A DNA stretch of 32,625 nucleotides from Candidatus Woesearchaeota archaeon (GCA_964469785.1 CAYXYT010000002.1:1-32625); one strand, 5' to 3'. Positions 1 through 24,928 are shown, numbered from the stretch's first letter. Notes: generated from the sequence alone by a model not told the origin. Made by a program: numbers and translations.

Positions 1-609
1 ATAATCGAGATAAATGAATTTGTTTTAGATTGTCTCAAAAGTAGTGCAGAGGAGGCTTTGGTTTTCATAGGACAACACGGTGGTTATGCAGTTACTCCTG
101 ACTTATCCAACGATATAAGCATTCCCCACTATTATTATAATGGTAGAAATCTCATGCCTTCAAAAGAGAAAATTGAAGAGGAAATAGGCAACTATATTGA
201 TCTTAGTCTGTTCTTTTGCATTCAGAGCTTCTCAGATTTTCCTGATTTTGAAATTAGAGAGGATGAAATTGAAATTAGAACAAATATTGAAGAGGAAATC
301 GTCAGCTTTGAGATAGATTACCCTTTAACTATTGTGAAAAATCAAACTATATATGGGTTGAAAGATTTTGAATTTAAAATTCCTATTAGATTAGATGCTG
401 TTTATAGTGTGGCCGGGTTTGTAGTTCAAAAGCAAATAGAAGATCCAGATAATATTTGTATAAGTTGTATTCTGGATACAGCTAATAAAAAAGAGGTCAA
501 AGTAGACATGATGGATTTTGAGGATGAAATAATTTTTACAATTACAGATGATAACTCTATCATTAATGATGTTCCTTTTGAATTTAAATTTGCAAATAAA
601 TATGGTTAA
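1..609 (+). CDS. Partial (5'-truncated at window edge) surface-cluster protein, paralog of the 10497..11252 product
   Basis: Frame 1 is open from base 1 (IIEINEFVLDCLKSSAEEALVFIGQHGGYA...), so the TTG at 58 in the ORF track is probably not the true start. By-eye alignment to the 251-aa product of 10497..11252 shows shared elements: C-x(2-3)-[acidic]-EE, GG, an aromatic patch (YYYNG vs YFTYNN), and P-x(2,5)-K-x(1,2)-IEEEI. Stop TAA 607-609 is directly followed by the ATG of the next gene. Confidence 0.6.
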   Translation: MIEINEFVLDCLKSSAEEALVFIGQHGGYAVTPDLSNDISIPHYYYNGRNLMPSKEKIEEEIGNYIDLSLFFCIQSFSDFPDFEIREDEIEIRTNIEEEIVSFEIDYPLTIVKNQTIYGLKDFEFKIPIRLDAVYSVAGFVVQKQIEDPDNICISCILDTANKKEVKVDMMDFEDEIIFTITDDNSIINDVPFEFKFANKYG

Positions 610-7798: not shown

Positions 7799-7820
7799 AA
7801 TATTTAGAATAAACACTTGT

Positions 7821-10496: not shown

Positions 10497-11252
10497 ATGA
10501 TGAATAAAAGAGGTCAGGTGACTATTTTCATTATTATTGCAGTGATTGTTGTTGGTGCGGCAGCCTTATTTTATATGCTCTCTCCAAAACTTGGAATTGA
10601 TTTAACAGGTAGAGTAAAAAATCCGCAGGATTTTATTAGAACATGTGTTGAAGAAGATTTAGAAGAGATTGTAGAGAGTGTTTCTTTACAAGGGGGAAGT
10701 TTAAATCCAGAACATTATTTCACATATAACAATATTAGAATAGAATACTTATGCTATATAAATCAGTATTATGCTCCGTGCATAATTCAGCAACCATTAT
10801 TGAAACAACACATTGAAGAAGAAATAAATACCGGAATTGAAAATATAGTAGATAATTGCTTTAATGCTTTAAAAGAGAGTTACGAAGATAAAGGATATGA
10901 TGTGGTTATAAGACCTGATGGAAAAAGAACAGAGCTGCTTCCAAAAAGAATTATTTTAGAAATGGGTTACAGTGTTATTTTAACAAAAGATGAATCTGAA
11001 GAGTATACTAAGTTCAATATAATTCTGAACAATAATCTTTATGAATTAATAGCTATTGCTAATAGTATATTAGAATGGGAGACAACATATGGTGACGCAG
11101 ACCCAACAATTTACATGACTTATTATCCTGATTTAAAAGTTGAGAAAAACCTTCGTGATGATGGAACAACAATTTATATATTAACAGACAGGCCGAGTGG
11201 AGATAAATTCCAGTTTGCTTCAAGAAGTGTGGCATGGCCAGCTGGTTATTAA
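10497..11252 (+). CDS. Class III signal peptide (type IV pilin-like) protein, paralog of the 1..609 product
   Basis: N-terminus MMNKRGQVTIFIIIAVIVVGAAALFYM: a short basic stretch, then [KR]G followed by Q, then a hydrophobic helix, as in archaeal prepilins. 251 aa. Confidence 0.7.
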   Translation: MMNKRGQVTIFIIIAVIVVGAAALFYMLSPKLGIDLTGRVKNPQDFIRTCVEEDLEEIVESVSLQGGSLNPEHYFTYNNIRIEYLCYINQYYAPCIIQQPLLKQHIEEEINTGIENIVDNCFNALKESYEDKGYDVVIRPDGKRTELLPKRIILEMGYSVILTKDESEEYTKFNIILNNNLYELIAIANSILEWETTYGDADPTIYMTYYPDLKVEKNLRDDGTTIYILTDRPSGDKFQFASRSVAWPAGY

Positions 11253-11253
11253 A

Positions 11254-11646
11254 ATGAGAAGAAAAATAATCACAAAAATAGAAAATTTATATAAAATTGT
11301 AAGAGAAATTTCTAAAAGAGAAAATGTTGCAGGGGTTTATTTATTTGGAAGTCATGCTACTAGAAAAAACAATGCTCTTTCAGATATAGATTTATGCGTA
11401 ATTGGTAATTTAAAAAATAAGGAAAAAACAGATATCTTAGGCTATACAACAGATAATTTAGATATTTCTTTCTTTAATGATTTACCGATTTGGATTAAAA
11501 TAAGAGTCCTAAAACAGGGTAGAGCTTTAATTGTTAAAGATAAAGAGTTTATTGATAAAATTAAGATAAATATTGCAAGAAAATATTTAGACTTTAAATA
11601 TATACTTAATCGATATTGCCTGGAGGTTTTGGGATGTACGATATAG
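11254..11646 (+). CDS. mntA: Minimal nucleotidyltransferase (MNT / MntA-like antitoxin)
   Basis: GS-x(9)-SDIDL signature (LFGSHATRKNNALSDIDLCV, nt 11347-11393). About 130 aa. I use the in-frame ATG at 11254, 1 nt after the upstream stop, instead of 11197, which would overlap the previous gene by 56 nt. Confidence 0.8.
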   Translation: MRRKIITKIENLYKIVREISKRENVAGVYLFGSHATRKNNALSDIDLCVIGNLKNKEKTDILGYTTDNLDISFFNDLPIWIKIRVLKQGRALIVKDKEFIDKIKINIARKYLDFKYILNRYCLEVLGCTI

Positions 11647-12050
11647 AAAGAATTACAAAAATAATAAAAGACATTGAAAAATATCAACGAGAATTAAAAG
11701 AGGTTAATGTAAATTCTATAAAAGATTTGGAAGATGGCACTAAACTCCACGCATCTTCTATGTTATGCTTTTCAATACTTAACAGGGTAATTGATTTGGG
11801 GCAAGAAATTTTAGTCAAAGAAGATTATGGAATGCCCTCAAGATATTCAGAGATTTTTGATAATTTAGTAAAAGCCGGGTTGTTAAATAAAAAAGAAACA
11901 GAAGAACTAAATGAATTAATTGGTCTTAGAAATATAATTGCTCATACTTACTTTGAGATAAGTAAAAAAGATATTTTCAAAATAATTAAGAAATTATCTT
12001 TGATTAATAATTTTGTTGAAAAAATAAAAAAGAGGATTAAAAATGGCTAG
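11634..12050 (+). CDS. hepT: HEPN-domain (DUF86-type, HepT-like) putative RNase toxin
   Basis: Rx4H motif RNIIAH at nt 11928-11945. About 138 aa. ATG 11634 lies 6 nt downstream of GGAGGT (11622-11627) and overlaps the MNT gene's 3' end by 13 nt, the typical MNT-HEPN pair architecture. Confidence 0.8.
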   Translation: MYDIERITKIIKDIEKYQRELKEVNVNSIKDLEDGTKLHASSMLCFSILNRVIDLGQEILVKEDYGMPSRYSEIFDNLVKAGLLNKKETEELNELIGLRNIIAHTYFEISKKDIFKIIKKLSLINNFVEKIKKRIKNG

Positions 12051-12165
12051 ACAAACAACAAAATTGGGAGGAAAAAGAGATTGGGTATTTTGGATTTTAT
12101 TAGTAATCCTCGTACTTGGACTTATACTATTAATTAAAATTTTAATTGCTGGGGGATTAGGATGA
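12043..12165 (+). CDS. Possible 40-aa single-pass membrane micro-protein (below ORF-track cutoff)
   Basis: My translation: MARQTTKLGGKRDWVFWILLVILVLGLILLIKILIAGGLG. Its ATG overlaps the HEPN stop by 8 nt, and its TGA overlaps the ATG of the next gene (ATGA). A GAGGA lies 8 nt upstream. Confidence 0.4.
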   Translation: MARQTTKLGGKRDWVFWILLVILVLGLILLIKILIAGGLG

Positions 12166-13934
12166 TGAATAAAAAACTTTTGTTAATTATGTTTGGGGTT
12201 TTTCTAGCTGTGTTTTTAACAGGCATCGCAAGTGCTGTTTGTTGTGAAAAAACCGACGCTGGAGCATGGTGTCAGGATGTTATTGATGAAGCAAATTGTG
12301 ATGATGGTTTTAGAACTGAACCCACTGCTTGTTTGTCAACAACTTATTGCAGCGAAGGAACGTGTGTTAATCGTCATACAGGAGAGTGTCTACCAAGCCC
12401 ACAATCAACATGTGACCCGACAATGGGGGGTTATTGGTATGATAAGGATTCTGATGAGGTTGATGAGTGCCAGTTAGGGTGTTGTTTGGTTGGAGATGGT
12501 GCTGCTCTTGTCTCGAGAGTTAGGTGCGATAAGATGGCTTCTGATTATAATTTAGAAGTTCATGATTTTAGAGAAGATGTTCAAGAGTCATTCGAATGTT
12601 CAATGATGGCGAGTCCTGAAGCAAAAGGCGCCTGTGTTACTAGCATAGAAAGGAGAAGAGATTGTGACATGACAACAAGGCAGGAGTGCCAAGATGCAAC
12701 TGGTGAATTTCACGAGGGCTTTTTATGCACAGCTCCTGAACTAGGGACAATCTGCGCAATGACAAGGCAAACTACTTGTGCTGAAGGAGAAATTGAAGTT
12801 TATTTTAAAGATTCTTGTGGAAACAATGCAAATATTTATGATGCTAGTTTAGTTGATGATACTAATTACTGGACATATATTAAAGACCCATCAGATTCTG
12901 ATGAAACCTGTGGTGTTGGATACTCAAATGCAAATTCAAAAACATGTGGAAATTGTAATTATATTTTTGGAAGTATTTGTGGAGCTTATAGATTAGGAGT
13001 AGATGTAAAACCAGATCACGGTGATTTTGTGTGCAGAGATTTAAAATGTAAATCAGGAAATCTTGCTGAAAAATTTAAGCAAGATTACGAAAGGTGGCCA
13101 GAACATGGTGAAGCATGGTGCTCTTATTCAACAGGAAAACCTTATGACGATTTTGGAAATTTTGAAGATGCAAAGCCAGGACAACTATCTTCCCGACTTT
13201 ATTGCTACAATGGAGAGGTTCAGGGAAATTTGTGTGATAACTTTAGAAACACCCTTTGCATGAAAAATACAACAACAGGGGCTGCTGCCTGCGTTCCAAA
13301 TAGATGGCAAACATGTTTTGGTCAGAATAATACAGATGATTGTGAAAATGAAGATAAGAGAGACTGCAAAGTTGTAAATAACCCAAATTATAAAGTTAGT
13401 CTTAGAAGAGATTCTGAAACAGGATATGAGGAATTATATTTTGGAGATAGTGATACTGGAAAAAAAATAAGGGCGTTTTGTGTTCCAAAATATCCGCCAG
13501 CACTTAATTTCTGGGACCCTCAAGCAGATATCCCTGTCACTGAATTAGAAGAAAATGTAGATACTCAAGAAAAACTATGTAATCTTGCAAATACCTTTTG
13601 TCCTGCTATGTACACTAAAGAAGTCGCGAAGGAAAATTGGGATGCTTGGGAACCTAAATCTGGGGAACTTATTGATGGTGAATGGTATGATTTAGATGTA
13701 TATGGAGATTTATATGACGATGGGACGAGATCTTATTGTTTTAAAGGAAAAGATAATGTTGGAAAAAGCTTGCCTGAAAAAATGCCTGTAAAAGAAAACT
13801 GGATAAAAGGCGCTCAAAATTATTGCTTGCCTATAGGGGATTGTGGTGTAAAATCAAATTATTGGGGTTATGAAGGTTATAATAAATGGAAACATCTCTT
13901 TACCGGAGATTATAAGGAGAGTAGTCTGCCATAA
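12162..13934 (+). CDS. Secreted, extremely cysteine-rich 590-aa protein, function unknown
   Basis: Signal peptide MMNKKLLLIMFGVFLAVFLTGIASA. About 40 Cys by hand count, spread over the whole length (VCCEKTDAGAWCQD...CSEGTCVN...). No TM anchor at the C-terminus. Confidence 0.8.
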   Translation: MMNKKLLLIMFGVFLAVFLTGIASAVCCEKTDAGAWCQDVIDEANCDDGFRTEPTACLSTTYCSEGTCVNRHTGECLPSPQSTCDPTMGGYWYDKDSDEVDECQLGCCLVGDGAALVSRVRCDKMASDYNLEVHDFREDVQESFECSMMASPEAKGACVTSIERRRDCDMTTRQECQDATGEFHEGFLCTAPELGTICAMTRQTTCAEGEIEVYFKDSCGNNANIYDASLVDDTNYWTYIKDPSDSDETCGVGYSNANSKTCGNCNYIFGSICGAYRLGVDVKPDHGDFVCRDLKCKSGNLAEKFKQDYERWPEHGEAWCSYSTGKPYDDFGNFEDAKPGQLSSRLYCYNGEVQGNLCDNFRNTLCMKNTTTGAAACVPNRWQTCFGQNNTDDCENEDKRDCKVVNNPNYKVSLRRDSETGYEELYFGDSDTGKKIRAFCVPKYPPALNFWDPQADIPVTELEENVDTQEKLCNLANTFCPAMYTKEVAKENWDAWEPKSGELIDGEWYDLDVYGDLYDDGTRSYCFKGKDNVGKSLPEKMPVKENWIKGAQNYCLPIGDCGVKSNYWGYEGYNKWKHLFTGDYKESSLP

Positions 13935-13942
13935 TTTAGAAA

Positions 13943-14791
13943 ATGAAAACATTAGGAAATGCATTAAGAAAAATTGGAATGGGGGGGCTTGGAATAAGCT
14001 TAGCAGGACTTTTATCTCTCGGTTCTGAGTCATGCACTCCTGCCCAGCAAAAAGTAGTTGCAGGAGATGTGATAATGGAAGAAGCAAAAACACCAGAACA
14101 ATTGATGGCAGGATATCTTTTGAAAACTATCGGAACAATGGAGCATGATATAGAAGTTGCAGAAGCTGGAAAAGATGAGATTAATATTAATATTGAGAGA
14201 GCTATACCAGGAGAGAGAAGCACTAGATATGAAAATTTAATTTATCGTGGGAACAATCAGTATAGTCCTGCAAAAGGACATAAAGGGGTGACTAGCGATG
14301 CAAGAGATGTAGATGTTTGGCCAATTAAAAAAAGGGTGGATGAATATGATTTTGGTCAGAGAGTAATTGGAAAATGGATAGCCCTTCCGCTGAATTTTAC
14401 ATGTAAGGGTTTTAAAGATTATAATGGAGATGGATATATTGGTAAAGATGAACTAATTGGTTTAAAAAATTATTTTCCTTGCAAAGCTCTAGGAGATACA
14501 ACCAGGGTATTGTGTGGTTCTTCATGGACGAATGTAAAAGGTAAAAAAATTATTGGGAAACTTAGCAAGACAAATACCGGAGAAATATTAATGATAGATA
14601 ACAACGATGATGGGATGTGGCTGGAAGGAAGAGCAAGATGGATGCGTGCTAATTTTTATAAGGGAAAAGATATTCACGGAATAAAAAGTTATACTGTTGA
14701 ATGGTTTGTTGATGGAAGATTAATTCCCACTAGAACGATTAATTTTTTTGTAGATTATGGAGAAAAAATTGAAAATGAAAACCAAGAATAA
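13943..14791 (+). CDS. Secreted/lipoprotein-like protein with one canonical EF-hand Ca-binding loop
   Basis: N-terminus MKTLGNALRKIGMGGLGISLAGLLSLGSESC (lipobox-like Cys). DYNGDGYIGKDE at nt 14417-14452 fits DxNxDGxIxxxE. Confidence 0.7.
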   Translation: MKTLGNALRKIGMGGLGISLAGLLSLGSESCTPAQQKVVAGDVIMEEAKTPEQLMAGYLLKTIGTMEHDIEVAEAGKDEININIERAIPGERSTRYENLIYRGNNQYSPAKGHKGVTSDARDVDVWPIKKRVDEYDFGQRVIGKWIALPLNFTCKGFKDYNGDGYIGKDELIGLKNYFPCKALGDTTRVLCGSSWTNVKGKKIIGKLSKTNTGEILMIDNNDDGMWLEGRARWMRANFYKGKDIHGIKSYTVEWFVDGRLIPTRTINFFVDYGEKIENENQE

Positions 14792-16874
14792 AAAAGGTGC
14801 GCTTGCAATAAGCCAGATTCTGATTTTGATAATTGGAATTATAGCTATTGGTTATGCTTTTGGAAGTCAGGTTGGAGTTGTTAGTGGGCAGCTTGGAACC
14901 ACTCCTTTGTCGACAGGAACGCCCACTGCAACGTCAAGTTACTATATTAATCCTTTTGGTTCTCATCCGTTTCTCCCTGGAATTGGTACTATGATTCGGG
15001 ATTTGAAACAGAGGATAGCCAGTGAATTATCAATTGTAAACATGTTTTATCATGCAGTAGGTGCCTTTATTGCTGCTTTTGTTATTGCGGCATTAGTAAG
15101 TAGCGCTATGGGAGGGGGTGTTGACTGGGACTTTGCAACAAGATTTGGCGGGGCTGTTTCTACAACCTGGCTGTCTGCAGAAAGTGGATTTAAGGCAGGC
15201 GAATGGGCTGCTAGAAGTACAGGACTCGCAGACGCGGGAGGTGTTCTCGGAGGGATTGGAACCGCATTGCCTTGGCTTGTTGCCGGAATTGCAGCGTGGG
15301 TTGCATGGCAAAGTGTTAAAGGATGGTTGCAAAAAATAGATGAGAGAACCATATACTTCGAGTGCAAATACTGGCAACCTCAAACAGGTGGAAATAATTG
15401 CGAATCGTGTAATAACGGAGCATTTCCTTGCACAGAATATCAGTGCAAAAGCCTTGGTGTTGCTTGTGACATCATAAATAAAGATACAGATGATCAAGAG
15501 TGCTTTTGGAACAATTCTCAAGATATAACTCCCCCATATATAGAGGCATGGGAAGATGCATTATTGCCTGATTATGAATATAAACCAATTCCAGAGCTAA
15601 GAACAGGCCGCGGTGTTGAAATTAAATATACTGATGAAAATAACCAAGAACAAGAATGCTTACCCGCCTGGACAGTATTTACATATGGAATAACTCTAGA
15701 TAAAAGAGGGCATTGTAGAATTGAGAAGCATACAACAAATAGCTTCTCTGAGATGACTCGTGATTTTGGAGGCAGCCAGACTTGGAAAACAGAGCATAAA
15801 CAATGGATGATATTTCCAGACGTGGCTTATATAGAGGCAGAAGCAGAAGAATCAGGAATTGAAATTGATGTTGATAATAATTATGAATATTATGTGAGGT
15901 GTGAAAATGAAAACGGCTATCCAAATGTTAAAGAATTCTTATTTAAATTTTGCATTGAAGAAGGTCCTGATTATACAGAACCAGAAATTGTTGGATTTAG
16001 CGTGGCTGATAACACTCCAATTCCATTTTTTGCAGAAAATGCTTTACACGAATATCCTATAGAAGCTTATGTTAACAAACCAGCCCAGTGTAAATGGAGT
16101 CATAATGACCGAGATTACAAAGATATGGAAAACAGCATGAGTTGTGCAACAAGCTCCTCTAATATAAATGCTCAGCTCTTATATACTTGCACCACAACAC
16201 TAACAGGCCTGGAAAACAGACAAGAAAACAAATTCTACTTCAGATGCAACAGCAGTTATTTTGGAATTGTGAATGAACAATCCAGGGTTCTCACTCTAAT
16301 TGGAACACAACCACTTGTAATTAGTTCTGCAAGCCCTAATAACACAATAATAAGGGGGTCTTCAGACAGCATCAAAGTAAGTATAGAAGCAACAACGTCT
16401 GCAGGTTATCAAGACGGGACAGCAGCTTGTGCTTATAGTGATACAGGACATTATGATGATTATACAGTGTTTGACGAGACAAATTCACATCAACACTCCA
16501 CAGATATCTGGTTAGGTGAAGGAGATTATGGATTTTACATCCAGTGTTTTGACCTGGCTGGGAACTCAGATGTTGAGATAATAAACTTCACACTTGAGAT
16601 AGACGCTCAGGCTCCAATAGTTGTTAGGGCATTTAGAGAAGGCAGCTCTTTGAAAATAATCACAGATGAAGAAGCAGAGTGTGTTTATAATCCACAATCT
16701 ACGCTTGGGTGTGGCTATAACTTTGAAGATGGGTTGGCAATGACAAGTTATGATGATATAAGTCATACTGTGGCATGGGAAGAAGAGACATTTTATATTA
16801 AATGCAAAGATGAGTTTGGAAATCAGCCAGCATTTAACCAGTGCAGCATAATTGTGAGGCCGTTTGAAGTATAA
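14775..16874 (+). CDS. Chimeric surface protein: class III (pilin-like) signal, Gly/Ala-rich multi-helix hydrophobic region, Cys-rich linker, four tandem ~100-aa beta modules
   Basis: The ORF track starts at 14757. The internal ATG 14775 gives MKTKNKKGALAISQILILIIGIIAIGYAF. The hydrophobic G/A-rich region lies around nt 15040-15340. Four modules each hold C-x-[IWY]... and end in [YF]-[YF]-[VFI]-[RQK]-C-x-[NSD]-x(2,3)-G: HCRIE..YYVRCENENG, QCKWS..FYFRCNSSYFG, ACAYS..FYIQCFDLAGN, ECVYN..FYIKCKDEFGN. Confidence 0.75.
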   Translation: MKTKNKKGALAISQILILIIGIIAIGYAFGSQVGVVSGQLGTTPLSTGTPTATSSYYINPFGSHPFLPGIGTMIRDLKQRIASELSIVNMFYHAVGAFIAAFVIAALVSSAMGGGVDWDFATRFGGAVSTTWLSAESGFKAGEWAARSTGLADAGGVLGGIGTALPWLVAGIAAWVAWQSVKGWLQKIDERTIYFECKYWQPQTGGNNCESCNNGAFPCTEYQCKSLGVACDIINKDTDDQECFWNNSQDITPPYIEAWEDALLPDYEYKPIPELRTGRGVEIKYTDENNQEQECLPAWTVFTYGITLDKRGHCRIEKHTTNSFSEMTRDFGGSQTWKTEHKQWMIFPDVAYIEAEAEESGIEIDVDNNYEYYVRCENENGYPNVKEFLFKFCIEEGPDYTEPEIVGFSVADNTPIPFFAENALHEYPIEAYVNKPAQCKWSHNDRDYKDMENSMSCATSSSNINAQLLYTCTTTLTGLENRQENKFYFRCNSSYFGIVNEQSRVLTLIGTQPLVISSASPNNTIIRGSSDSIKVSIEATTSAGYQDGTAACAYSDTGHYDDYTVFDETNSHQHSTDIWLGEGDYGFYIQCFDLAGNSDVEIINFTLEIDAQAPIVVRAFREGSSLKIITDEEAECVYNPQSTLGCGYNFEDGLAMTSYDDISHTVAWEEETFYIKCKDEFGNQPAFNQCSIIVRPFEV

Positions 16875-16979
16875 AGGGAACCAAGGTTCCCCTTATCAAC
16901 CCTTCCTGATAAGATAATTAATCCAGCTGTGTTAAAAGACCTCTTATCAAACCCTCCTTTAAACTACCCGGGTTTTTTT
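16875..16979 (+). repeat. Intergenic element, locus A of a 3-locus family, starting 1 nt after the stop codon and ending in a T7 run
   Basis: Contains AGGGAACCAAGGTTCCCCTTATCAACCC...ATCCAGCTGTGTTAAAA...CTCTTATCAAACCCTCCTTTAAAC. Hairpin GGGAAC-CAAG-GTTCCC at 16876-16891. Inverted repeat CTTATCA (16892-98) / TGATAAG (16907-13). CCCGGG followed by T7 at 16973-16979. Confidence 0.85.
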
Positions 16980-17086
16980 ATTAAACTTTTTTTAAAAACT
17001 ATTTCGCAAATTCTACATTTTTTAAATTTTTAAATTATATTCTAAATCATAAATATACCCAATACAATCTGCTAATAATGTAATAA

Positions 17087-17094
17087 TTTTTAAA
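17087..17094 (+). promoter_or_regulatory. Candidate TATA box for the 17116 gene
   Basis: TTTTTAAA, 21 nt upstream of ATG 17116. Confidence 0.35.
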
Positions 17095-17115
17095 GACTAG
17101 TTCTTTTTTTTATCT

Positions 17116-17616
17116 ATGAAAAAAAGAGGACAGATGAAACTATCTTTCGGAATGATTTTTTCGATTATTTTAATAATTGTATTCCTTGCTTTTGCCTTTT
17201 TTGCTGTGAAAAAATTTATTGGCTGGGGGGACTCAGCGCAAATCACGCAGTTTAAAAATAATTTTCAGTCAGACATTGATAAATTATGGGCAGCTAGCCA
17301 GGGTTCACAACAAGAAGAATACTTCCTGCCGACAAAAATAACGTATTTGTGCTTTTTAGATTATTATGCAAATGTTCAAGGAATTAATCATCAGGATTTT
17401 TACAGCGAGTTAGAGTTATTTTACCATGGTTCTGAAAACCTGTTTTTTTATCCTCCTGAATCTGCAGATGGCTTAGAGTCTGCAGAGATAAAGCATATTG
17501 ACATTGGTGAGATTACAACTGAAGAAAATCCTTTTTGTATTAAAAATGATAAAGGGAAAATAAAACTTGTGCTTAAAAAAGATTTTGGAGAAAGCCTTGT
17601 CAGAGTCACAAGATAA
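17116..17616 (+). CDS. Class III signal peptide (type IV pilin-like) protein, 166 aa
   Basis: N-terminus MKKRGQMKLSFGMIFSIILIIVFLAFAFFAV: basic stretch, then RG followed by Q, then a hydrophobic helix. Confidence 0.7.
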   Translation: MKKRGQMKLSFGMIFSIILIIVFLAFAFFAVKKFIGWGDSAQITQFKNNFQSDIDKLWAASQGSQQEEYFLPTKITYLCFLDYYANVQGINHQDFYSELELFYHGSENLFFYPPESADGLESAEIKHIDIGEITTEENPFCIKNDKGKIKLVLKKDFGESLVRVTR

Positions 17617-17759
17617 GGATTATGTTATTATATTAATAAACAAACTCTTAGGAAACTAAACTGTGAAAAAGATAAACTGTAAAAAAGAGTCAGAAGAATT
17701 TGAATAAAAATTGTGTCTTAATAAAAATGCTGATAAAATCCAGACTAAAATTCAAATCC

Positions 17760-18680
17760 ATGAACAAAAAAGCTGCTTTGCAAATATCTTTTCAGTGGCT
17801 TTTTGCACTTATTGTCGGCGCTTTCATATTATTTATTGCAATCTATGCTGCCACAAAAGTCATACAAACAGACCAGACATCTGCAAGTGCTGAAGCCAGC
17901 AAAGAGCTTGGTATTTTGCTAAATCCTTTAGAGACTGGTTTTGAATCAGGTAAAACAAATTTGCTTTCAGTGCAAGTAGAAACCAGAATCTATAATACTT
18001 GCGATAATTTTGGAGAGTTTGGGCAACAAACAATTCAGGCGGCCCAAAAAACCTTTAACAAGTGGACAGAAACACCTATTGACGCTCGCTTTCAGAATAA
18101 GTATATTTTCTCTGAAAAGCCTGTTGAAGGAAAAAATTTTTATGTGTTTTCAAAACCGTTTGAATTTCCTTTTAAAATTACAGACCTGATTTATTTAACT
18201 TCTGCAAAAGAAAACTATTGCTTTGTTGAGCCTCCTGTTGAGATTGAAGAAGAGCTCAGAGATTTAAAACAAGGGAATTTGTTTGTTGAGGATTGTCCTG
18301 AGAACAGTATTCGGGTTTGCTTTAATAATGGAAATTGCGAGATTGATGTTGATTATTTTTCAGGATATGTTGAAAAAAATAATGAGCTGGTTTATTTTGA
18401 AACCCCTGCTTTAATGTATGCTGCTGTTTTTTCAGATAAGTATGTCTATAAATGTCAGGTTAAAAGAATTATGCAAAGGCTGGAAAATCTGGCATTGCTA
18501 TATAAAGATAAATCAGGGTTTATTGCCCAACAAGGATGCGTGGCAGAAATGGACCCTGACTTAATAGCTTTAAGCAATCTTGCAAATAGCTTTGAAGATA
18601 CAGGGGATCTTTCCCAAATGACAAATATCGTGAATGCTCTTGAAAATAAAAATGATTTCGCAGAATGTAGGCTGTGGTAG
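17760..18680 (+). CDS. Class III signal peptide (type IV pilin-like) protein, about 306 aa
   Basis: The ORF track starts at a TTG (17700). ATG 17760 gives MNKKAALQISFQWLFALIVGAFILFIAIYAA. ATG 17727 is an alternative start. Confidence 0.65.
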   Translation: MNKKAALQISFQWLFALIVGAFILFIAIYAATKVIQTDQTSASAEASKELGILLNPLETGFESGKTNLLSVQVETRIYNTCDNFGEFGQQTIQAAQKTFNKWTETPIDARFQNKYIFSEKPVEGKNFYVFSKPFEFPFKITDLIYLTSAKENYCFVEPPVEIEEELRDLKQGNLFVEDCPENSIRVCFNNGNCEIDVDYFSGYVEKNNELVYFETPALMYAAVFSDKYVYKCQVKRIMQRLENLALLYKDKSGFIAQQGCVAEMDPDLIALSNLANSFEDTGDLSQMTNIVNALENKNDFAECRLW

Positions 18681-18812
18681 TAAATTTTTCAAAAAAATTT
18701 AGAGTAAACCAGGACGAGATAAAGAGTAACCTTTTAGAAAAAGAGTTAACAAAAAATTAATTGGGCAAAAACCAGGAAAAAAAGATCAGACAAAAATTGA
18801 TATAAAAAAAAG

Positions 18813-19340
18813 ATGGAGCAAACAAACAAAACAAAAAAAGCACAGATGAAAATTCAGCAAATGGCATTTATGTTAATAGCTGTTATTTTGTTTTTCGGTC
18901 TTGTAGCTATGTTTGTTGTGAGTTTTAAGCTTTCTGGTTTAAGAGAAGCAGCTGCTATGCTTGAAGAGAAAAACGCATTATTGCTCGTGACAAAACTAGC
19001 AAACTCACCTGAGTTTTCGTGCGGGCGGGGTTTTGGAACAGAAAAAGTTAATTGTGTTGACCTTGATAAAGCCATGATGTTGAAACAAGATATAGCTAAA
19101 TACGTGAACTTTTGGGGTGTTGAGAACATAGAAATCAGGAGAATTTATCCAGAGCTAACCGGGGAGATTGTGTGTAGCCTGGAGAATTATCCTGACTGCA
19201 ATATAATCCGCTTGCTTTCAGAGTCTAGCGAAGGAACAGGTATTGCGAATTTTGTAGCTCTCTGCAGAAAACACTCTTTTGAAAGGCAGGCTTATAATAA
19301 ATGTGAGTTAGGAAAAATAATTGTGGCATATAGAAAATGA
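18813..19340 (+). CDS. Class III signal peptide (type IV pilin-like) protein, 175 aa
   Basis: N-terminus MEQTNKTKKAQMKIQQMAFMLIAVILFFGLVAMFVV: KKA followed by Q, then a hydrophobic helix. Confidence 0.65.
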   Translation: MEQTNKTKKAQMKIQQMAFMLIAVILFFGLVAMFVVSFKLSGLREAAAMLEEKNALLLVTKLANSPEFSCGRGFGTEKVNCVDLDKAMMLKQDIAKYVNFWGVENIEIRRIYPELTGEIVCSLENYPDCNIIRLLSESSEGTGIANFVALCRKHSFERQAYNKCELGKIIVAYRK

Positions 19341-19819
19341 GAAAAAATAAAAAAGCGCAAGAAGAGATGCTTGGGTTTGCATTAATTATAATTGTGGTTG
19401 CCGTAATCATGCTTGTTTTCCTTAGTCTTTCTTTAAGAAATCAGGAAAAAGAAGTTGTGGAAAGTTATGAAGCTGAGAGTTTTGTCCAGGCTTTTCTACA
19501 ATATCACACAACCTGCCAGGATTACTCTGGGTATATATCTCTAAAAGATTTAATATTTAGCTGCAATAATGAAGAATTGTGCCTAGATGAAAGAGATAGC
19601 TGCGAGGTTTTAAACACCACGCTTGAAGGAATTCTTGAACAGAGCTGGAGAGTTTCACCTGACAGCCCTGTAAAAGGATATGAATTAAGAATTGTTGCTG
19701 GTGGGCAAGAGCTCATAAATCTTGAAAAAGGTAATCTAACAAATAATTATAAAGGAAGTGTGCAGGATTTTATCAAAAGAGGGAATTTAATAGAAATCTT
19801 TTTCACAGCTTATTACTAA
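19337..19819 (+). CDS. Class III signal peptide (type IV pilin-like) protein, 160 aa
   Basis: N-terminus MRKNKKAQEEMLGFALIIIVVAVIMLVFLSL. ATGA overlap with the upstream gene suggests translational coupling. Confidence 0.65.
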   Translation: MRKNKKAQEEMLGFALIIIVVAVIMLVFLSLSLRNQEKEVVESYEAESFVQAFLQYHTTCQDYSGYISLKDLIFSCNNEELCLDERDSCEVLNTTLEGILEQSWRVSPDSPVKGYELRIVAGGQELINLEKGNLTNNYKGSVQDFIKRGNLIEIFFTAYY

Positions 19820-19901: not shown

Positions 19902-20267
19902 TTACATTTTTAGATGAATTGTGATTTTATCCACCACAATCTTTGGAACATGCCTAATTCTCTTTTTTGTTCTTTCTTTTATAAGTTGAATAAAGCCAAA
20001 ACGTTCTAAAAGTTTAATATCATCATTCACAGCCTTAAAGTTTCTATCCAGCTTTTTGGCTAAATCGTAAATAGATGTGGGATTTTTGGTCTTTATTGTA
20101 TACAACATACGGGCTTTTTCATTGCTCAAAAGCTGTCTTAAAGCCAGAATTCCTGAAAAATCTAAATCTTTTTTTGAAGCCCCTGCCTTTTTAAAAATAG
20201 AAAAAGCTCCTTTAGATTGCTTTAAAGTTATTTCTCTTGTCTTTGTTTTTTGTTTTTTTCTTGCCAT
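19902..20267 (-). CDS. Small winged-helix (ArsR/MarR-like) DNA-binding protein, putative transcription regulator
   Basis: 121 aa. Basic N-terminus, then a pattern typical of wHTH proteins (RQLLSNEKARMLYTIKTKNPTSIYDLAKKLDRNFKAVNDDIKLLERFGFIQL). Divergent from the S-layer gene. The family assignment is by eye only. Confidence 0.5.
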   Translation of the reverse strand: MARKKQKTKTREITLKQSKGAFSIFKKAGASKKDLDFSGILALRQLLSNEKARMLYTIKTKNPTSIYDLAKKLDRNFKAVNDDIKLLERFGFIQLIKERTKKRIRHVPKIVVDKITIHLKM

Positions 20268-20653: not shown

Positions 20654-23344
20654 ATGAAATTTAACTTTAAAAAAGTCTCAGCAATTGGAACGAGCATTCT
20701 ATTAGCAGGAATGAGTATGGGAGTTGCTGCTGCTGCAAACTATCCAAGCCCATTTGTGGTTGGAGGAACAGCAGATGTAGCAATTGTATATGGTACAGGT
20801 ACAGGAGTTTCTGCTTTAGACGTTGTTCAGTCAGGAAATATCCAGACAGACCTGCAATCTTTTATGGGTGCGAGTACTACTGGAGACGGTGACGTAACTA
20901 CTGAGGGAGAAATAGTATCCTTAGATACAGGTTCTGGTGGGAGAATATACTTAAATAACAGTATAAATAAAAGAGAAACTTTAACAAAAAGTAATCTTCC
21001 AACAGTGCTTGCAGATACTTCTTTCTCTGGAAATGTTGATGCAACAATTACCCAATCAATCGTTATTGGTGCTGGACACACTGCGAGTAGTGCATCTAAC
21101 CTAGTTGGTTCAAATACAGTTGTCTTTGCAAAACAGCCAAAAAGCGGAGATGAACCTGTTATTGGATTGAGCATGGGAAACAAAACATGGCCTATGTACA
21201 ATCTCTCTGCAACTTTCAAGGCAATTAACTTCTCGCATAGTGATTCTGAAGGAGAAACATTAACTCTTTTCGGAAAAGACTATGTGATTAGCACTGCAAC
21301 AACTCCGGGAGCTACAGGAGACCTGGTGCTTTTCTCTACTGCAGAAGAGGTCACTTTAACAAAATCTGGGGTTGAAAATCCTTCTGTTAGTGTAACAATC
21401 AGTGGAACAGATTACACTGTTACGTTACTAAACGGAGACAGTACAAGTGCAACTATCGATGTTGATGGAGAGAGTAAGGATATAACGGAAGGAAGTTCTA
21501 AGAAGATTGGTGGAATAGATATTGCAGTTAAGTCAGTTACATCCTCTGATGTAGCAGGTATTACAGCTACGCTGCTTGTAGGTGCTGAAAAAATAACTTT
21601 CAAAGATGGAAGTCGTGTTACAACAGGTTCAGAAGGAACCGCTATCAAGGGAACAGATGTAACTATTACAGGTGGTCCTGGTGCTGCAACAGAATTAAGA
21701 ATTACTGTTTACAGACCTAGTGCAAACGATGACGCTTTACTTGAAGGTGAAACATTTGTAGATCCTGTGTTTGGTAGTATCAAGCTAGAATTTGTCGGAC
21801 TAAGCGAATCTCTTGATGCTGATACAAGAGGTACTATTAGTGTTCAACACGAAGATAACGACCAAATGTCAATTACAATGACACATAAAGATGGTGATAC
21901 AGCAACTATAGCATGGGCACATAATGTAAGTAGTAGGTGGTGGTTAGCAGATGATTCTAACTACAGTATTTACCCTTATGAGCATGCTAATGTGACTGAA
22001 GATGAATACCTATTAGTCGGTAATGACGAATTTGGAACCCTTGTGAGAGTTTACAACATGTATAACAGTAGTGACGATGACCACACAAAGAACACTCTTG
22101 AGTTGGAGGATGTGTTCGATGGAGAAATTTATGATGCGACATTCACTTCTCACGTTGACGGATATGTTACAATTAAAAACAAGCAGTATGATGTAAACTT
22201 TAGTGCTGCTGGTGGTGGAACCCATAGGGCTCAGCTTAAGTATCCTTCATCTGACTCTCCATCAGGAGATGATTTTGTAGTTTATCCAACAATCCAGACT
22301 GATAGTAACGCAAGAATTGCATTTTATATGCCAATGAACATAACCATGACTAGTTTCGCTGGAACAGGAATTACACCAGCAAGATTGTATTTCCCTGACG
22401 GGGATGGCTATACCTCTATTACTATAGAATTTGGAAATGATGACGCTGATAGATGGAATATAACTCATGGAAGTACAACAGATGAGGTACTAACTCTGAA
22501 TGTTACTGCTTTTGATAGTGTCGACTTTACGATAGGAAGAGTTATATATAATCTTACATCTACGGCTACACAAAACGTAACAAGATTGTATATAAATGAC
22601 CTTGAGAGTGCTGGTAACGCAATCGACAACCCAGGAATACTTGTTTTTGAATCAGAAGATGACAACAATAATTACGAAGCAATCTTCGTAGACCTTGAAG
22701 ATGATCCTCCTGGAACATCCACGAATGGTGTTGGAGTAGATGATGTGTTGTTCTCGACAGTATACGGACATTATTCTGCTACCAAACAAGGAGTCAGTAT
22801 TACGCAAGATGTTGACTGGTTCGGAACACTTACAGAGAAAGATTCAGAGACAGATTCTGATCAAGCAACTCTTGAAATAAAGGTTCCTTCATCACAGGTA
22901 TATGCTCAACTATACGTGGGTGAAGAAACTGCTGCTATAACATCTGACACAACAACTACAACAGGCGCAACAACTCTTGGAGATGTCCTTGTTAAAGATA
23001 GCGAGGTAAGCTCTGTAGCTACAAAGAATCTGATTATTGTTGGTGGAAGCTGTATTAACTCAGCTGCTGCTAGCTTGGTCGGAGGAGCTCTCTGTGGCCC
23101 TAGCTGGACCGATACAACAGGTATTGGCTCAGGAGAGTTCTTAATTAAAGGCTATAGCGATTCAAGCCTTGCTGCTGGTAAGCTTGCATTACTTGTTGCT
23201 GGTTATGATGCTGCAGATACTGTAAATGCTGCTACATATCTACGAACACAGGTAGTGGATACTGATAAAGAATACAAAGGAACATCTGCAACAGAAGCTA
23301 CGCTTGTGACAGAAGAGACTACAGAGGAAACTACAGAAGAATAG
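20654..23344 (+). CDS. S-layer (surface layer) protein, 896 aa
   Basis: Signal peptide MKFNFKKVSAIGTSILLAGMSMGVAAAA. Mature N-terminus NYPSPFVVGGTADVAIVYGTGTGVSALDVV. C-terminal block NLIIVGGSCINSAAASLVGG...LLVAGYDAADTVNAATYL. Both ends match the conserved termini of euryarchaeal (Methanococcales-type) S-layer proteins. Thr/Ser/Gly-rich with many N-x-S/T sequons. Strong RBS and T-rich terminator. Confidence 0.8.
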   Translation: MKFNFKKVSAIGTSILLAGMSMGVAAAANYPSPFVVGGTADVAIVYGTGTGVSALDVVQSGNIQTDLQSFMGASTTGDGDVTTEGEIVSLDTGSGGRIYLNNSINKRETLTKSNLPTVLADTSFSGNVDATITQSIVIGAGHTASSASNLVGSNTVVFAKQPKSGDEPVIGLSMGNKTWPMYNLSATFKAINFSHSDSEGETLTLFGKDYVISTATTPGATGDLVLFSTAEEVTLTKSGVENPSVSVTISGTDYTVTLLNGDSTSATIDVDGESKDITEGSSKKIGGIDIAVKSVTSSDVAGITATLLVGAEKITFKDGSRVTTGSEGTAIKGTDVTITGGPGAATELRITVYRPSANDDALLEGETFVDPVFGSIKLEFVGLSESLDADTRGTISVQHEDNDQMSITMTHKDGDTATIAWAHNVSSRWWLADDSNYSIYPYEHANVTEDEYLLVGNDEFGTLVRVYNMYNSSDDDHTKNTLELEDVFDGEIYDATFTSHVDGYVTIKNKQYDVNFSAAGGGTHRAQLKYPSSDSPSGDDFVVYPTIQTDSNARIAFYMPMNITMTSFAGTGITPARLYFPDGDGYTSITIEFGNDDADRWNITHGSTTDEVLTLNVTAFDSVDFTIGRVIYNLTSTATQNVTRLYINDLESAGNAIDNPGILVFESEDDNNNYEAIFVDLEDDPPGTSTNGVGVDDVLFSTVYGHYSATKQGVSITQDVDWFGTLTEKDSETDSDQATLEIKVPSSQVYAQLYVGEETAAITSDTTTTTGATTLGDVLVKDSEVSSVATKNLIIVGGSCINSAAASLVGGALCGPSWTDTTGIGSGEFLIKGYSDSSLAAGKLALLVAGYDAADTVNAATYLRTQVVDTDKEYKGTSATEATLVTEETTEETTEE

Positions 23345-23471: not shown

Positions 23472-24050
23472 ATGAGAAAAATATTATCAAAATATGAACA
23501 AGAGAAAAAAAGAAAAAGAAGTCAATTAGTTGTTGGTTTGATTCTTATATTTGTTATGTTTTTCAGTGTCTTAGGATATAGTTTTGTTGGTAGGGGGGCT
23601 AGCCAAGATGATACAAATAAGATAATTTATAATGAGTATGAATTTGTAAATCAAAATGGGCTCTGGATATTAAATCTGGATAATGTTAATTTTGTTTTCC
23701 GATATAATCCAGAACAGGTCCCAAAAGTCTATTCTTGGGTAAGACCATTTGATAATTATTATCAAAAACCAGTTTATATTTCTTCAGAAAGCCCTGAAGC
23801 TGAAACAGAAATTTATGTTAATCTGAATCAAATTGCATTAAGAATGCAGCGTGCTTGTTTATCAGAAGAGGAGTGTGGAGATGAAAACCTTCCTATAAAA
23901 ACATGCTCTGATAATTTTATAATAATAGAGGAAAGCAATATTACAGACATAATTCAGCAAGAAAATTGTGTGTTTATACAGGGTCCGGAAGTTAATTTAA
24001 CGAGAATAGCAGACGAGTTTTTGTTTAAAATTCTCGGAATAGAACAATAA
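23472..24050 (+). CDS. N-terminally anchored extracellular protein, 192 aa, paralog of the 24293..24928 product
   Basis: KKRKRSQLVVGLILIFVMFFSVLGYSFVG anchor. Shared NF-[VY]-[FL]-R-[YN]-[ND]-P block (NFVFRYNPEQV vs NFYLRNDPRKL). TATA-like TTTATAAT at 23445-23452, 19 nt upstream. Confidence 0.65.
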   Translation: MRKILSKYEQEKKRKRSQLVVGLILIFVMFFSVLGYSFVGRGASQDDTNKIIYNEYEFVNQNGLWILNLDNVNFVFRYNPEQVPKVYSWVRPFDNYYQKPVYISSESPEAETEIYVNLNQIALRMQRACLSEEECGDENLPIKTCSDNFIIIEESNITDIIQQENCVFIQGPEVNLTRIADEFLFKILGIEQ

Positions 24051-24217
24051 AGGGAACCAAGTTTCCCCTTATCAACCCCTCCTTTAAACTAGCAAGGTTC
24101 CCTTTATCAAACCCTCCTTTAAACTAGCAAGGTTCCCTTTATCAAACCCTCCTTTAAACTAGCAAGGTTCCCTTTATCAAACTCCCAGTTATATACTTAA
24201 ATCCAGCTGTGTTAAAA
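24051..24217 (+). repeat. Intergenic element, locus C: 35-bp unit in about 3.8 tandem copies plus the ATCCAGCTGTGTTAAAA tail
   Basis: Units at 24051-24085 (variant AGGGAACCAAGTTTCCCCTTATCAACCCCTCCTTT), 24086-24120 and 24121-24155 (identical AAACTAGCAAGGTTCCCTTTATCAAACCCTCCTTT), and 24156-~24182 (truncated). ATCCAGCTGTGTTAAAA at 24201-24217 is identical to locus A (16921-16937). Confidence 0.9.
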
Positions 24218-24292
24218 ACCTTTTATAAAGCCCCTTTTTAAAGAAATCTTCCCTCTAACAAAATTTAAAAAGATAAAAAATAATTTATAAAA

Positions 24293-24928
24293 ATGGTTAA
24301 AGCTAAAAAAGGGAAAAACAAGAAAAAAAAGAGCAGAAAAACTAGCGGGAAAAAGCAAATTGAATATGAAAACAAATTATTAAGAAACCTTTTTATTGGG
24401 GTTGGAATTTTTATTTTAATAGTTTTAATATTATTCTGGGTTTTTAGTTTTGCGAGCAAGTTTGAATATGAAGGAGTAAAATTTAAAATTGTAAAAGAAG
24501 GGAACTTAATTTTGTATCAGACTTCTTTGCCTGTAATACATAATGGGCAAAAAGCCACCTATAATTTTTATTTAAGAAATGACCCTCGAAAACTAGCTGA
24601 CATTTATTTTGAGGGGGGGCTTTTTATGGATGATAATATGGTTATTAATTCTACAGAAGATTTTAATTGTGACGGGGATGGTGTTATTGCAATTGCAAAT
24701 TTAGTAAAACTTTATGAAATTATTGGGACAAAAGTGATAAAAGATGAAAATGCAACATGTGACCCCGAGCTAGGGTATGCATTTTTACAAATAACTTCTG
24801 CTAATCAGACAAATATAGAAAAGTTTGGTCCCATATGCTATCGTTTAAATATATATAACTGCGAAATCTTAAAAGCTACAGAAAGATTTATGCTTGAAAC
24901 TCTTGTAGAGGTAAATAAAATATTATAA
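24293..24928 (+). CDS. N-terminally anchored extracellular protein, 211 aa, Lys-rich N-terminus
   Basis: MVKAKKGKNKKKKSRKTSGKK... then TM helix LFIGVGIFILIVLILFWVFSFA. TATA-like ATTTAAAA at 24263-24270, 22 nt upstream. Confidence 0.65.
   Translation: MVKAKKGKNKKKKSRKTSGKKQIEYENKLLRNLFIGVGIFILIVLILFWVFSFASKFEYEGVKFKIVKEGNLILYQTSLPVIHNGQKATYNFYLRNDPRKLADIYFEGGLFMDDNMVINSTEDFNCDGDGVIAIANLVKLYEIIGTKVIKDENATCDPELGYAFLQITSANQTNIEKFGPICYRLNIYNCEILKATERFMLETLVEVNKIL

Follow-up and report, generated by a model that had tools for sequence, protein, structure and literature searches.

A conserved cluster of pilin-like genes and large cysteine-rich surface proteins in Pacearchaeota and Woesearchaeota as a candidate adhesion system

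Five pilin-like genes and the genes for two large Cys-rich surface proteins lie together in the window, a 32,625-nucleotide stretch of DNA from a Candidatus Woesearchaeota archaeon (Table 1); their products most likely assemble into a short fibre on the cell surface or an adhesion complex. On balance, we lean towards reading the cluster as an unnamed set of pilins from the type IV filament (TFF) superfamily that, with its cargo, occurs throughout the Pacearchaeota/Woesearchaeota lineage. We infer its function, and the cluster is a good candidate for how these tiny uncultured archaea attach to other cells. The original prediction had called the system uncharacterised, which is correct because none of the products has a name in Pfam, NCBIfam, or the PDB. 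All the plus-strand ORFs that it had placed in the cluster exist at the coordinates it gave.

Table 1. Coordinates of the features discussed, counted from the first base of the window.
Feature	Length (aa)	Position	Strand	Description
g251-family paralog, 5'-truncated		1..609	+	frame 1 open from base 1
giant secreted protein	1170	610..4122	+	directly 3' of the g251-like paralog
g251	251	10497..11252	+	class III-type N-terminus KRG↓QVTIFIII, flexible linker, 210-residue alpha/beta head
MNT/HepT toxin-antitoxin pair		11254..12050	+	PF18765 E = 1.5e-12, PF01934 E = 1e-20
g590	590	12162..13934	+	secreted, 41 Cys, Sec signal peptide (…GIASA↓V)
g282	282	13943..14791	+	secreted or lipoprotein-like, one EF-hand-type Ca loop
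g705	705	14757..16874	+	membrane-anchored giant; Sec-like leader, then variable region
g166	166	17116..17616	+	small pilin-like, KRG↓QMKLSFGMIFS; first gene of its block
g306	306 (from ATG)	17760..18680	+	larger pilin-like, 8 Cys
g175	175	18813..19340	+	small pilin-like, KK[GA]↓Q[LM]KIQQMAF
g160	160	19337..19819	+	small pilin-like, KK[GA]↓QEE[MI]VGF; 4-nt overlap with g175
HVO_A0114-family winged-helix regulator		19902..20267	-	PF25212 E = 3e-16
S-layer protein		20654..23344	+	Methanococcus-type outer domain, PF05124 E = 6e-10
g192 and g211		23472..24928	+	two conserved N-terminally anchored proteins, 3' of the S-layer gene

A short basic leader ending in [KR][GAS], with a hydrophobic stretch of roughly 20 residues directly behind it, was found in g251, g166, g306, g175, and g160; the analysis covered the window proteins and 46 orthologs of each of these families. 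The residue at −1 was G, A, or S in 100% of g251, g166, g175, and g160 (46 orthologs per family). A Gln directly after the [KR][GA] pair had been noticed in four of the six proteins first noted, and across orthologs it stood at +1 in g251 (46/46, 100%), g160 (46/46, 100%), g175 (45/46, 98%), and g166 (42/46, 91%). Judged from their sequences, these four N-termini are of the EppA-type class III pattern; the +1 Gln is inferred to be essential for EppA processing (PMC4390842). The whole g251 motif was kept in 46/46 orthologs, and Q8, E9, E10, and G13 of g160 were invariant in 46/46. The class III motif of g306 was looser, KK[GA]↓[YAGF]L[QE]ISFxWLFA, with Y, A, G, or F in place of Gln at +1, G or A at −1 in 34/46 orthologs, and Q or E at +3 in 46/46.

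The six N-termini quoted in the original prediction are exact, and a FlaFind-like regular expression run over all six frames of the window recovered no others besides one spurious match at an internal Met of a polytopic membrane protein. Five of the six keep the class III motif across orthologs, while in the 705-aa protein it is not conserved. Judged by eye, the charged residues at +2/+3 do not conform to the strict FlaFind pattern. The curated pilin and archaellin models PF04021, PF07790, and TIGR02537 (Pfam, NCBIfam) gave no match at E ≤ 1–10, and the UniRef label ‘PilX N-terminal domain’ on homolog X0VXT6 was not reproduced.

The AF2 model of g175 (pLDDT 86.7, pTM 0.70) showed a single 58-residue helix (6–63), a loop, and an antiparallel sheet with strands at 105–112, 131–133, 143–156, and 159–172. 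The AlphaFold check asked of this protein returned a type IV pilin-like topology; g175 models as the pilin ‘lollipop’ and is the best-supported candidate for a pilin fold in the cluster. Foldseek matched no pilin to this model. The g175 family has 576 representatives at 50% identity. The g251 model (pLDDT 88.1, pTM 0.78) showed a helix at 5–31, a disordered segment at 30–39, and a globular part at 43–243. This head is a confident fold with no PDB fold match in Foldseek; both modelled heads are without a solved structural match. The g251 head, which is tethered to its helix by the disordered linker, is not recognisable as a pilin fold. The 1250 homologs of g251 include none with a name. We propose that g251 is an adaptor for the giant protein encoded alongside it.

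A g251-type gene is always followed by the gene for a giant secreted protein. A third such pair of pilin-like gene and giant secreted protein occupies positions 1–4122 of the window. The product of 1..609 matched the g251 family profile in hhalign (probability 90.9%, E = 1e-6). Its class III N-terminus lies off the contig because the ORF runs past the contig start; locus L010 carries a full-length ortholog with the N-terminus MINKRGQVTIF. The 1170-aa partner has a Sec-type leader and a Cys-rich C-terminus, and no sequence relation to g590 or g705 was found. The same pair of a g251-like gene and a 1170-aa-type giant is also present in L010 and L065.

g590 had been described as a secreted protein with about 40 Cys, which agrees with the 41 counted behind an ordinary Sec-type leader. 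Among 39 orthologs, 27 Cys columns were invariant, and Pfam and the PDB gave no match. The 705-aa protein had been taken for a chimera with a pilin-like N-terminus, and this was rejected. Its [KR][GA] motif is peculiar to this strain, with G or A at −1 in 7/20 homologs; the family has a conserved …VSA↓Q/E signal-peptidase I-like site ending the h-region; and natural g590~g705 fusions drop the g705 leader segment. In sequence, the g705 N-terminus resembles a Sec signal peptide with two more hydrophobic segments after it, and hydropathy placed Gly/Ala-rich hydrophobic segments at about 100–118 and 162–180. Sec (class I) AxA-like leaders were assigned to the g590 and g705 families, as was the site above, from the alignments. 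g705 also has a conserved Cys-knot, CKxWQ…C..C…CTEYQC.SLG..C (alignment of 20 homologs), and four Ig-like beta modules; homologs of g705 gave Big_13 / Y_Y_Y / DUF4625 matches. In at least 19 genomes, g590-like and g705-like proteins are fused in an extra module, each preceded by a g251 paralog. Because of these fusions, we conclude that g590 and g705 work together.

Almost all of the roughly 80 related DPANN loci, at 35–55% identity, share the order PCNA, 251, 590, 705, 166, 306, 175, 160, HTH, S-layer. The predicted gene order is therefore kept, apart from the 282-aa gene, which is not in it. Conservation of gene order had been set beforehand as a refutation test, and the order proved exceptionally well conserved. 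The cluster falls into two compact units, g251-g590-g705 and g166-g306-g175-g160, and the second is tightly packed, with median gaps of 1, −3, and −4 nt.

Two insertions interrupt the first unit in this strain. The MNT (nucleotidyltransferase)/HepT (HEPN RNase) pair lies between g251 and g590 in none of the related loci; it is an insertion specific to this strain, which interrupts the g251-g590 operon and stands outside the system. The original prediction had omitted its two ORFs and had counted seven genes at most 8 nt apart between 10497 and 16874, where there are six ORFs and a 111-nt gap between 12050 and 12162. The other insertion is g282, described earlier as an EF-hand protein. It does have a canonical DxNxDG Ca-loop, with a weak Pfam EF-hand match (E = 0.075), but it is not a member of the conserved system: only L001 and L002, two near-identical contigs, were found to carry it, all other loci lack it, and it is likewise strain-specific.

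Downstream of the cluster, the HVO_A0114-family gene, always divergent, lies between g160 and the S-layer gene, a position it holds in 58 loci, and its product possibly regulates g160 or the S-layer gene. The S-layer gene neighbours the cluster at a conserved position, and its product lacks a C-terminal membrane anchor (hydropathy: no C-terminal TM). This adjacency may be mere genome collinearity, as the synteny of PCNA and primase is just as strong. g192 and g211 were rejected as class III proteins, as their N-termini (KRKR↓NQ…) are signal anchors. The window also holds a pacearchaeosortase and its PACE-CTERM target.

Profile searches of the window found no ATPase, platform protein, or peptidase, in line with the earlier statement that it lacks a FlaI/PilB-type ATPase, a FlaJ/PilC platform, and a prepilin peptidase. 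Among 79 related loci, no Walker-A GxTGSGKT ORF and no A24-like ORF occurred within ±10 kb of the cluster. Many or most Woesearchaeota MAGs are reported to have homologs of flaI, flaJ, and flaK (PMC5994134, PMC11606122, PMC8407392); a groundwater study reported T4P components missing from DPANN genomes (bioRxiv 2020.05.14.094862).

In the mechanism that we propose, a gene elsewhere in the genome would supply an EppA/FlaK-family aspartic peptidase that removes the leaders, and a FlaI-type ATPase with a FlaJ/TadC platform would bring the hydrophobic helices together in a short heteromeric fibre, perhaps a minor-pilin tip complex or pseudopilus. Conserved residues follow the cleavage site, namely Lys at +3 (g166, g175), Glu at +2/+3 (g160), and Gln/Glu at +3 (g306), and these charges may pair between subunits. 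g251, with its head on a flexible linker, would dock the disulfide-rich secreted g590, which would sit on the membrane-anchored, Ig-domain-bearing g705. The assembly would reach through the S-layer and serve cell–cell or surface adhesion.

For the pilin set we counted motif conservation, the g175 topology, synteny, operon-like spacing, the Rosetta-stone g590~g705 fusions, the third pair at window 1–4122, the reported flaI/J/K genes, and the fact that minor pilins, large Cys-rich secreted proteins, and S-layer-like proteins often occur together in known archaeal T4P loci (PMC4858521). Against it we counted the missing machinery in the window and within ±10 kb, the lack of any pilin HMM or Foldseek pilin match, the non-pilin head of g251, the charged +2/+3 positions, the groundwater T4P report, an S-layer adjacency that may be collinearity, and the lack of an obvious major pilin. 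A bolder form of the pilin reading, which is possible but rather doubtful, is an undescribed lineage-defining surface organelle for episymbiont host attachment or penetration, whose heteromeric stalk of pilin-like proteins would bear a g590-g705 complex, locked by disulfides, across the S-layer. If true, at least seven protein families without named relatives would make up this organelle.

The absence of TFF machinery within 10 kb in every one of the 79 loci searched also fits an unlikely alternative, namely that the five small proteins are uncleaved N-terminal signal anchors (type II membrane proteins) rather than TFF substrates and form, with g705, g590, g192, and g211, a scaffold between membrane and S-layer, which would anchor or space the S-layer protein, itself anchor-less. 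The always adjoining gene of that protein, the envelope island with pacearchaeosortase and PACE-CTERM target, the linker-tethered non-pilin head of g251, the plain anchors of g192 and g211, and the unmatched pilin HMMs are consistent with such a scaffold. However, a plain anchor needs positive charge only, which leaves the invariant small residue and Gln in four unrelated families unexplained. The continuous 58-residue helix and sheet of g175 are a pilin design, and the S-layer adjacency is no stronger than that of PCNA and primase.

Less probable still is a bindosome-like or competence-like uptake device in place of an adhesin, in which a short pilin-like assembly would retain, in the pseudo-periplasm, proteins that capture substrate or DNA to feed an auxotrophic cell. 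The ectodomains match no substrate-binding protein, nuclease, or ComEC/ComEA, the cluster has no transporter gene, and the Ig-domain and Cys-knot proteins that make up the cargo are of a kind typical for adhesins or envelope proteins. A precedent does exist in the Sulfolobus Bas system, which combines small pilin-like proteins with class III-bearing binding proteins, and relatives carry a ComEA-like HHH_3 protein 6–9 kb upstream. We also counted in its favour a 2026 TFF survey arguing that SPIII binding proteins are widespread (bioRxiv 10.64898/2026.04.22.720090) and the pilus-mediated DNA import proposed for DPANN Undinarchaeota (PMC7414124). Finally, the idea that hydrophobic N-termini have clustered here by chance, or that the region is a mobile or viral island, is effectively refuted by synteny and motif conservation and is extremely improbable. 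Many Lys-rich N-termini are expected in AT-rich genomes and a toxin-antitoxin pair lies inside the cluster, but that pair is unique to this strain, the motifs are kept in hundreds of orthologs, and in every genome the cluster lies in a collinear chromosomal core beside PCNA and primase.

The pilin set preferred here can be compared with four known systems. It resembles the bacterial T4P minor-pilin/PilY1 complex and the T2SS GspH-I-J-K tip in having four to five distinct pilin-like subunits of low abundance encoded by one operon, a large surface protein that is not a pilin, and an enlarged-head subunit (cf. GspK, PilX), and a shared tip or priming-complex working may be supposed. No sequence or Foldseek relation connects them, the leader is archaeal-type without the G↓F..E5 methylation motif, and the large partner is membrane-anchored and Cys-rich instead of a beta-propeller. 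In the Sulfolobus bindosome (BasABC and class III sugar-binding proteins), small pilin-like proteins are thought to form a non-filamentous envelope structure, which bears large globular proteins with class III signals close to the S-layer; g251 shares its ‘helix + linker + head’ design. Unlike the bindosome, the cluster has no adjoining BasEF-like ATPase/platform genes, and its heads lack the fold of substrate-binding proteins. Thermoproteales T4P loci (clades 4B/4E/4G, Makarova et al. 2016) combine diverse small putative minor pilins with a large signal-peptide protein (adhesin/minor pilin) and an S-layer-like protein, and they have numerous conserved cysteines (PMC4858521). The cluster is like them in this gene combination, but they are defined by ATPase/TadC genes absent here, the protein families are unrelated, and the present lineage is DPANN. 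Compared with the Epd pili, or TFF ‘system 1’, of Methanococcus maripaludis (EppA substrates EpdA-E), the locus lacks EppA, the ATPase, the two TadC genes, a PF04021/DUF361 match, and a short headless major pilin, and giant Cys-rich partners replace the Epd accessory set. The cluster nevertheless shares with the Epd system the basic leader, the [KR]G↓Q with +1 Gln, and several different minor pilin-like proteins encoded together, and TFF system 1 has been reported in some DPANN.

The cluster proteins at 10497–19819 are named here by their length in residues (g251, g590, g282, g705, g166, g306, g175, and g160). All six frames of the window were searched with a FlaFind-like pattern ([KR][GA][ALIFQMVEDS] within residues 1–25, with a hydrophobic stretch after it). 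Apart from a spurious match at an internal Met in a polytopic protein, only six cluster genes matched; the N-terminal strings given for these six in the original prediction were exact. Key-position residues were counted in alignments of 46 orthologs per family. The −1 position of the putative cleavage site was G/A/S in 46/46 orthologs of each of g251, g166, and g160, and G/A in 45/46 of g175; +1 was Gln in 46/46, 42/46, 46/46, and 45/46, respectively. In g251 the Gln was followed by VTIF, g175 had K at +3 in 45/46, and g160 had E at +2 and +3 (each 46/46). In g306, −1 was G/A in 34/46 and +1 was Y/A/G/F, with Q/E at +3 in 46/46. The +1 Gln was inferred to be essential for processing by EppA, the Methanococcus pilin peptidase (PMC4390842). 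Among the five small families, hhalign found similarity no further than the leader/helix region (probability 36–55%), and it found none between g251 and g306. By these counts, the proposed pilin-like N-terminus held for g251, g166, g175, and g160, held more loosely for g306, and failed for g705.

In the g705 family, G/A occupied the position matching −1 in just 7/20 homologs, a conserved VSA|Q/E-type site followed the h-region, and the N-terminal segment was missing altogether from natural g590–g705 fusions. Because of these three features, the N-terminus of the 705-aa protein, previously described as pilin-like, is best read as a predicted Sec leader. Beyond this leader, hydropathy gave two more hydrophobic segments rich in Gly/Ala (about 100–118 and 162–180); these precede a conserved Cys-knot and a set of four Ig-like modules. 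Homologs of g705 (>150, 35–54% identity) were all unnamed and all came from Nanoarchaeota/Pace-/Woesearchaeota records; matches among homologs were to Big_13, Y_Y_Y, and DUF4625. At least 19 genomes had an extra module between PCNA and the standard cluster, consisting of a g251 paralog and then a 1137–1378-aa protein. The N-terminal half of this protein aligned with g590 residues about 1–500, and its C-terminal half with g705 from about residue 60–200 to the end. As g590-like and g705-like halves are naturally fused, the two proteins probably act together, and the fusion suggests that they form a physical complex.

The AlphaFold2 model of g251 (89 homologs; pLDDT 88.1, pTM 0.78) comprised a helix (5–31), a disordered linker (30–39), and a confident alpha/beta head (43–243). 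A Foldseek search of the head against the PDB gave no match at E < 1e-3, with all TM-scores < 0.2, so g251 is predicted to carry a pilin-like leader on a non-pilin head, as archaeal class III binding proteins do. An MltG/YceG assignment was rejected, as the YceG (Pfam E = 0.07) and MltG (TIGR00247 E = 0.05) matches were weak and far under the cut-offs, the matched motifs were spaced differently, and Foldseek did not return MltG. One JGI homolog of g251 bears the name 'YceG'. A 5′-truncated g251 paralog was found at the left end of the window, and its full-length ortholog starts MINKRGQVTIF. The secreted g1170 protein (1170 aa), encoded directly after it, forms the third pairing of a g251-type gene with a giant protein; no relation of g1170 to g590 or g705 was found. 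This recurring arrangement suggests that g251 is an adaptor for the giant protein.

For g175, AlphaFold2 (95 database homologs; pLDDT 86.7, pTM 0.70) gave one continuous helix (6–63), a short alpha–beta loop, and four antiparallel strands (105–112, 131–133, 143–156, and 159–172). The modelled topology is that of a type IV pilin lollipop; membership of the fold is not proven, as Foldseek gave no PDB match at E < 1e-3. Absence of a significant Foldseek match is not unusual for a pilin. Cys151 and Cys164 are invariant and fall within the final two strands, a placement comparable to the C-terminal disulfide of bacterial pilins. The representatives search gave 576 clusters for the g175 family, with no remote named relatives among the matches listed, all of which were family members. 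A 65% identical homolog is called 'PilX N-terminal domain-containing' in UniRef, a name that the family search did not reproduce. Six family members (P0369, P0449, P0451, P0453, P0472, and P0478) of 346–399 aa had two profile-matching stretches, which suggests that other genomes encode pilin-like proteins formed by tandem duplication or fusion.

Scanning GTDB species representatives yielded 271 matching stretches; the loci retrieved numbered 79. Gene order was compared by running the window proteins in BLASTP against ORFs from 87 loci, with median identities of 36–56%. The order primase (−), PCNA, g251, g590, g705, g166, g306, g175, g160, HTH (−), S-layer, g192, and g211 (the last two N-terminally anchored proteins) was found in essentially every long-enough locus, as the original prediction required. 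Median intergenic gaps were 3 nt (g251–g590), 11.5 nt (g590–g705), 93 nt (g705–g166), 1 nt (g166–g306), −3 nt (g306–g175), and −4 nt (g175–g160). These gaps indicate two compact units, g251-g590-g705 and g166-g306-g175-g160. One of the loci (JAHYJW010000002.1, 147 kb), titled 'Patescibacteria group bacterium' in GTDB, carried the full archaeal primase, PCNA, pilin-like cluster, and S-layer block; the contig has probably been mislabelled or mis-binned and belongs to a DPANN archaeon. A ComEA-like HHH_3 protein and an MJ0538-family protein were present 6–9 kb upstream of the cluster in relatives (L005 575–1114, L007 330–878), a part of the neighbourhood that falls outside the window contig.

All ORFs of the original prediction were present at their coordinates, and the 590-aa protein, given about 40 Cys, has 41. 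The run of seven genes at most 8 nt apart over 10497–16874 proved to be six ORFs, interrupted by a gap of 111 nt (12050 to 12162); two of the six are an overlooked MNT/HepT toxin–antitoxin pair. This pair sits exactly between g251 and g590 and breaks an operon whose genes are contiguous in every relative. Among the 87 loci, the pair and g282 were confined to this strain and two near-identical short Logan contigs (SRR8146443 and SRR8146440), so they are insertions. The EF-hand protein g282, recently inserted between g590 and g705, is not the cluster member that had been proposed.

The window spans the full length of a 32,625-bp contig from a Pacearchaeota-type DPANN archaeon, with a G+C content of 27–42% per 1-kb window, mostly about 30–40%. 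PCNA and a Methanococcus-type S-layer protein are also encoded, and together with the PACE-CTERM protein this makes two different S-layer-type proteins. The two Cys-rich secreted proteins upstream of the primase had no family match and are kept there in many relatives; one of them has 34 Cys and a GDGN repeat.

Coordinates and properties of window features outside the conserved cluster families
Feature	Position	Strand	Properties
5′-truncated g251 paralog	1–609	+	open from base 1; g251 profile hhalign probability 90.9%
g1170	610–4122		secreted, 1170 aa
Two further secreted proteins	4123–5442 and 5804–7816	−	Cys-rich 'C..GG..C..GEEC' modules; C-terminal TM helix and basic tail
Fused PriS-PriL primase	7829–9127	−	single 432-aa gene; matches small- and large-subunit Pfam domains
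MNT nucleotidyltransferase/HepT (HEPN) toxin–antitoxin pair	11254–12050	+	Pfam E = 1.5e-12 and 1e-20
g282	13943–14791	+	282 aa; canonical DYNGDGYIGKDE Ca-binding loop
Pacearchaeosortase	25418–25945	−	NF033505, E = 3e-64
PACE-CTERM 'putative S-layer protein'	26900–28780	−	626 aa; NF033506, E = 2e-131; predicted substrate of nearby pacearchaeosortase

Neither Pfam nor NCBIfam gave anything above threshold for any cluster protein or family alignment, the five pilin-like families included, and PDB profile searches with seven family alignments gave no significant match. The only pilin among the PDB profile matches listed was type IV pilin PilE1, for g166 (E = 1.5). The cluster families are all unnamed, and no earlier description of the cluster was found in the literature.

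We lean, by a modest degree, towards reading the cluster as a detached type IV filament (TFF) pilin set, in which four small pilin-like subunits and the g251 adaptor form a fibre or tip complex presenting g590–g705. An EppA/FlaK-type peptidase would process the leaders of the five pilin-like proteins, and a FlaI/FlaJ pair would assemble the subunits; both would be encoded elsewhere. The product may be a short heteromeric fibre or tip complex, in which K(+3) could pair with E(+2/+3) between subunits and g590 could dock. The disulfide-rich g590–g705 complex would be displayed at the surface, possibly with an adhesive role. As predicted, the window contained no assembly ATPase, platform protein, or prepilin peptidase, and a motif scan of 79 loci found no ORF with a secretion-ATPase Walker A or A24-like motif within ±10 kb. 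The published record on such machinery is mixed, mostly favourable: flaI, flaJ, and flaK have been reported from genomes of Woesearchaeota (PMC5994134), from the majority of MAGs in a lake population (PMC11606122), and from Nanoarchaeota as well as Woesearchaeota (PMC8407392), and TFF system 1 (Epd-like) has been reported from some DPANN (bioRxiv 10.64898/2026.04.22.720090), whereas a groundwater study states that DPANN are missing T4P components (bioRxiv 2020.05.14.094862).

In the main rival reading, which we consider unlikely, the proteins stay uncleaved and membrane-anchored and form an envelope scaffold tied to the S-layer protein, itself anchor-less. The S-layer gene does lie beside the cluster, and this adjacency by itself is not functional evidence, because PCNA and primase are equally syntenic. 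Positive charge is the sole requirement of a plain signal anchor, so the invariant small residue and invariant Gln across four otherwise unrelated families point to a probable peptidase recognition site. A bindosome-like or DNA-uptake role, a functional variant of the pilin-set reading, appears less likely still. The conservation rules out both a chance cluster and a mobile origin.

Pacearchaeota and Woesearchaeota rank with the most abundant uncultured archaea. They are thought to be host-attached but, to our knowledge, still lack a defined attachment machinery. The cluster offers seven universally conserved, co-inherited gene families open to test (five encode pilin-like proteins and two encode giant, Cys-rich ones), and g251 and g175 provide two confidently modelled heads without a solved structural relative. 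If the proteins are uncleaved anchors, the cluster would still define the membrane-to-S-layer architecture of the lineage. ATPase-centred or arCOG-based surveys of archaeal TFF systems would probably miss detached pilin sets of this kind. The cluster follows the general plan of archaeal TFF pilin sets and is thus not categorically new. Known archaeal T4P loci, whose ATPases can also serve detached pilin sets, often bring together sets of minor pilins, S-layer-like proteins, and large, Cys-rich secreted proteins (PMC4858521).
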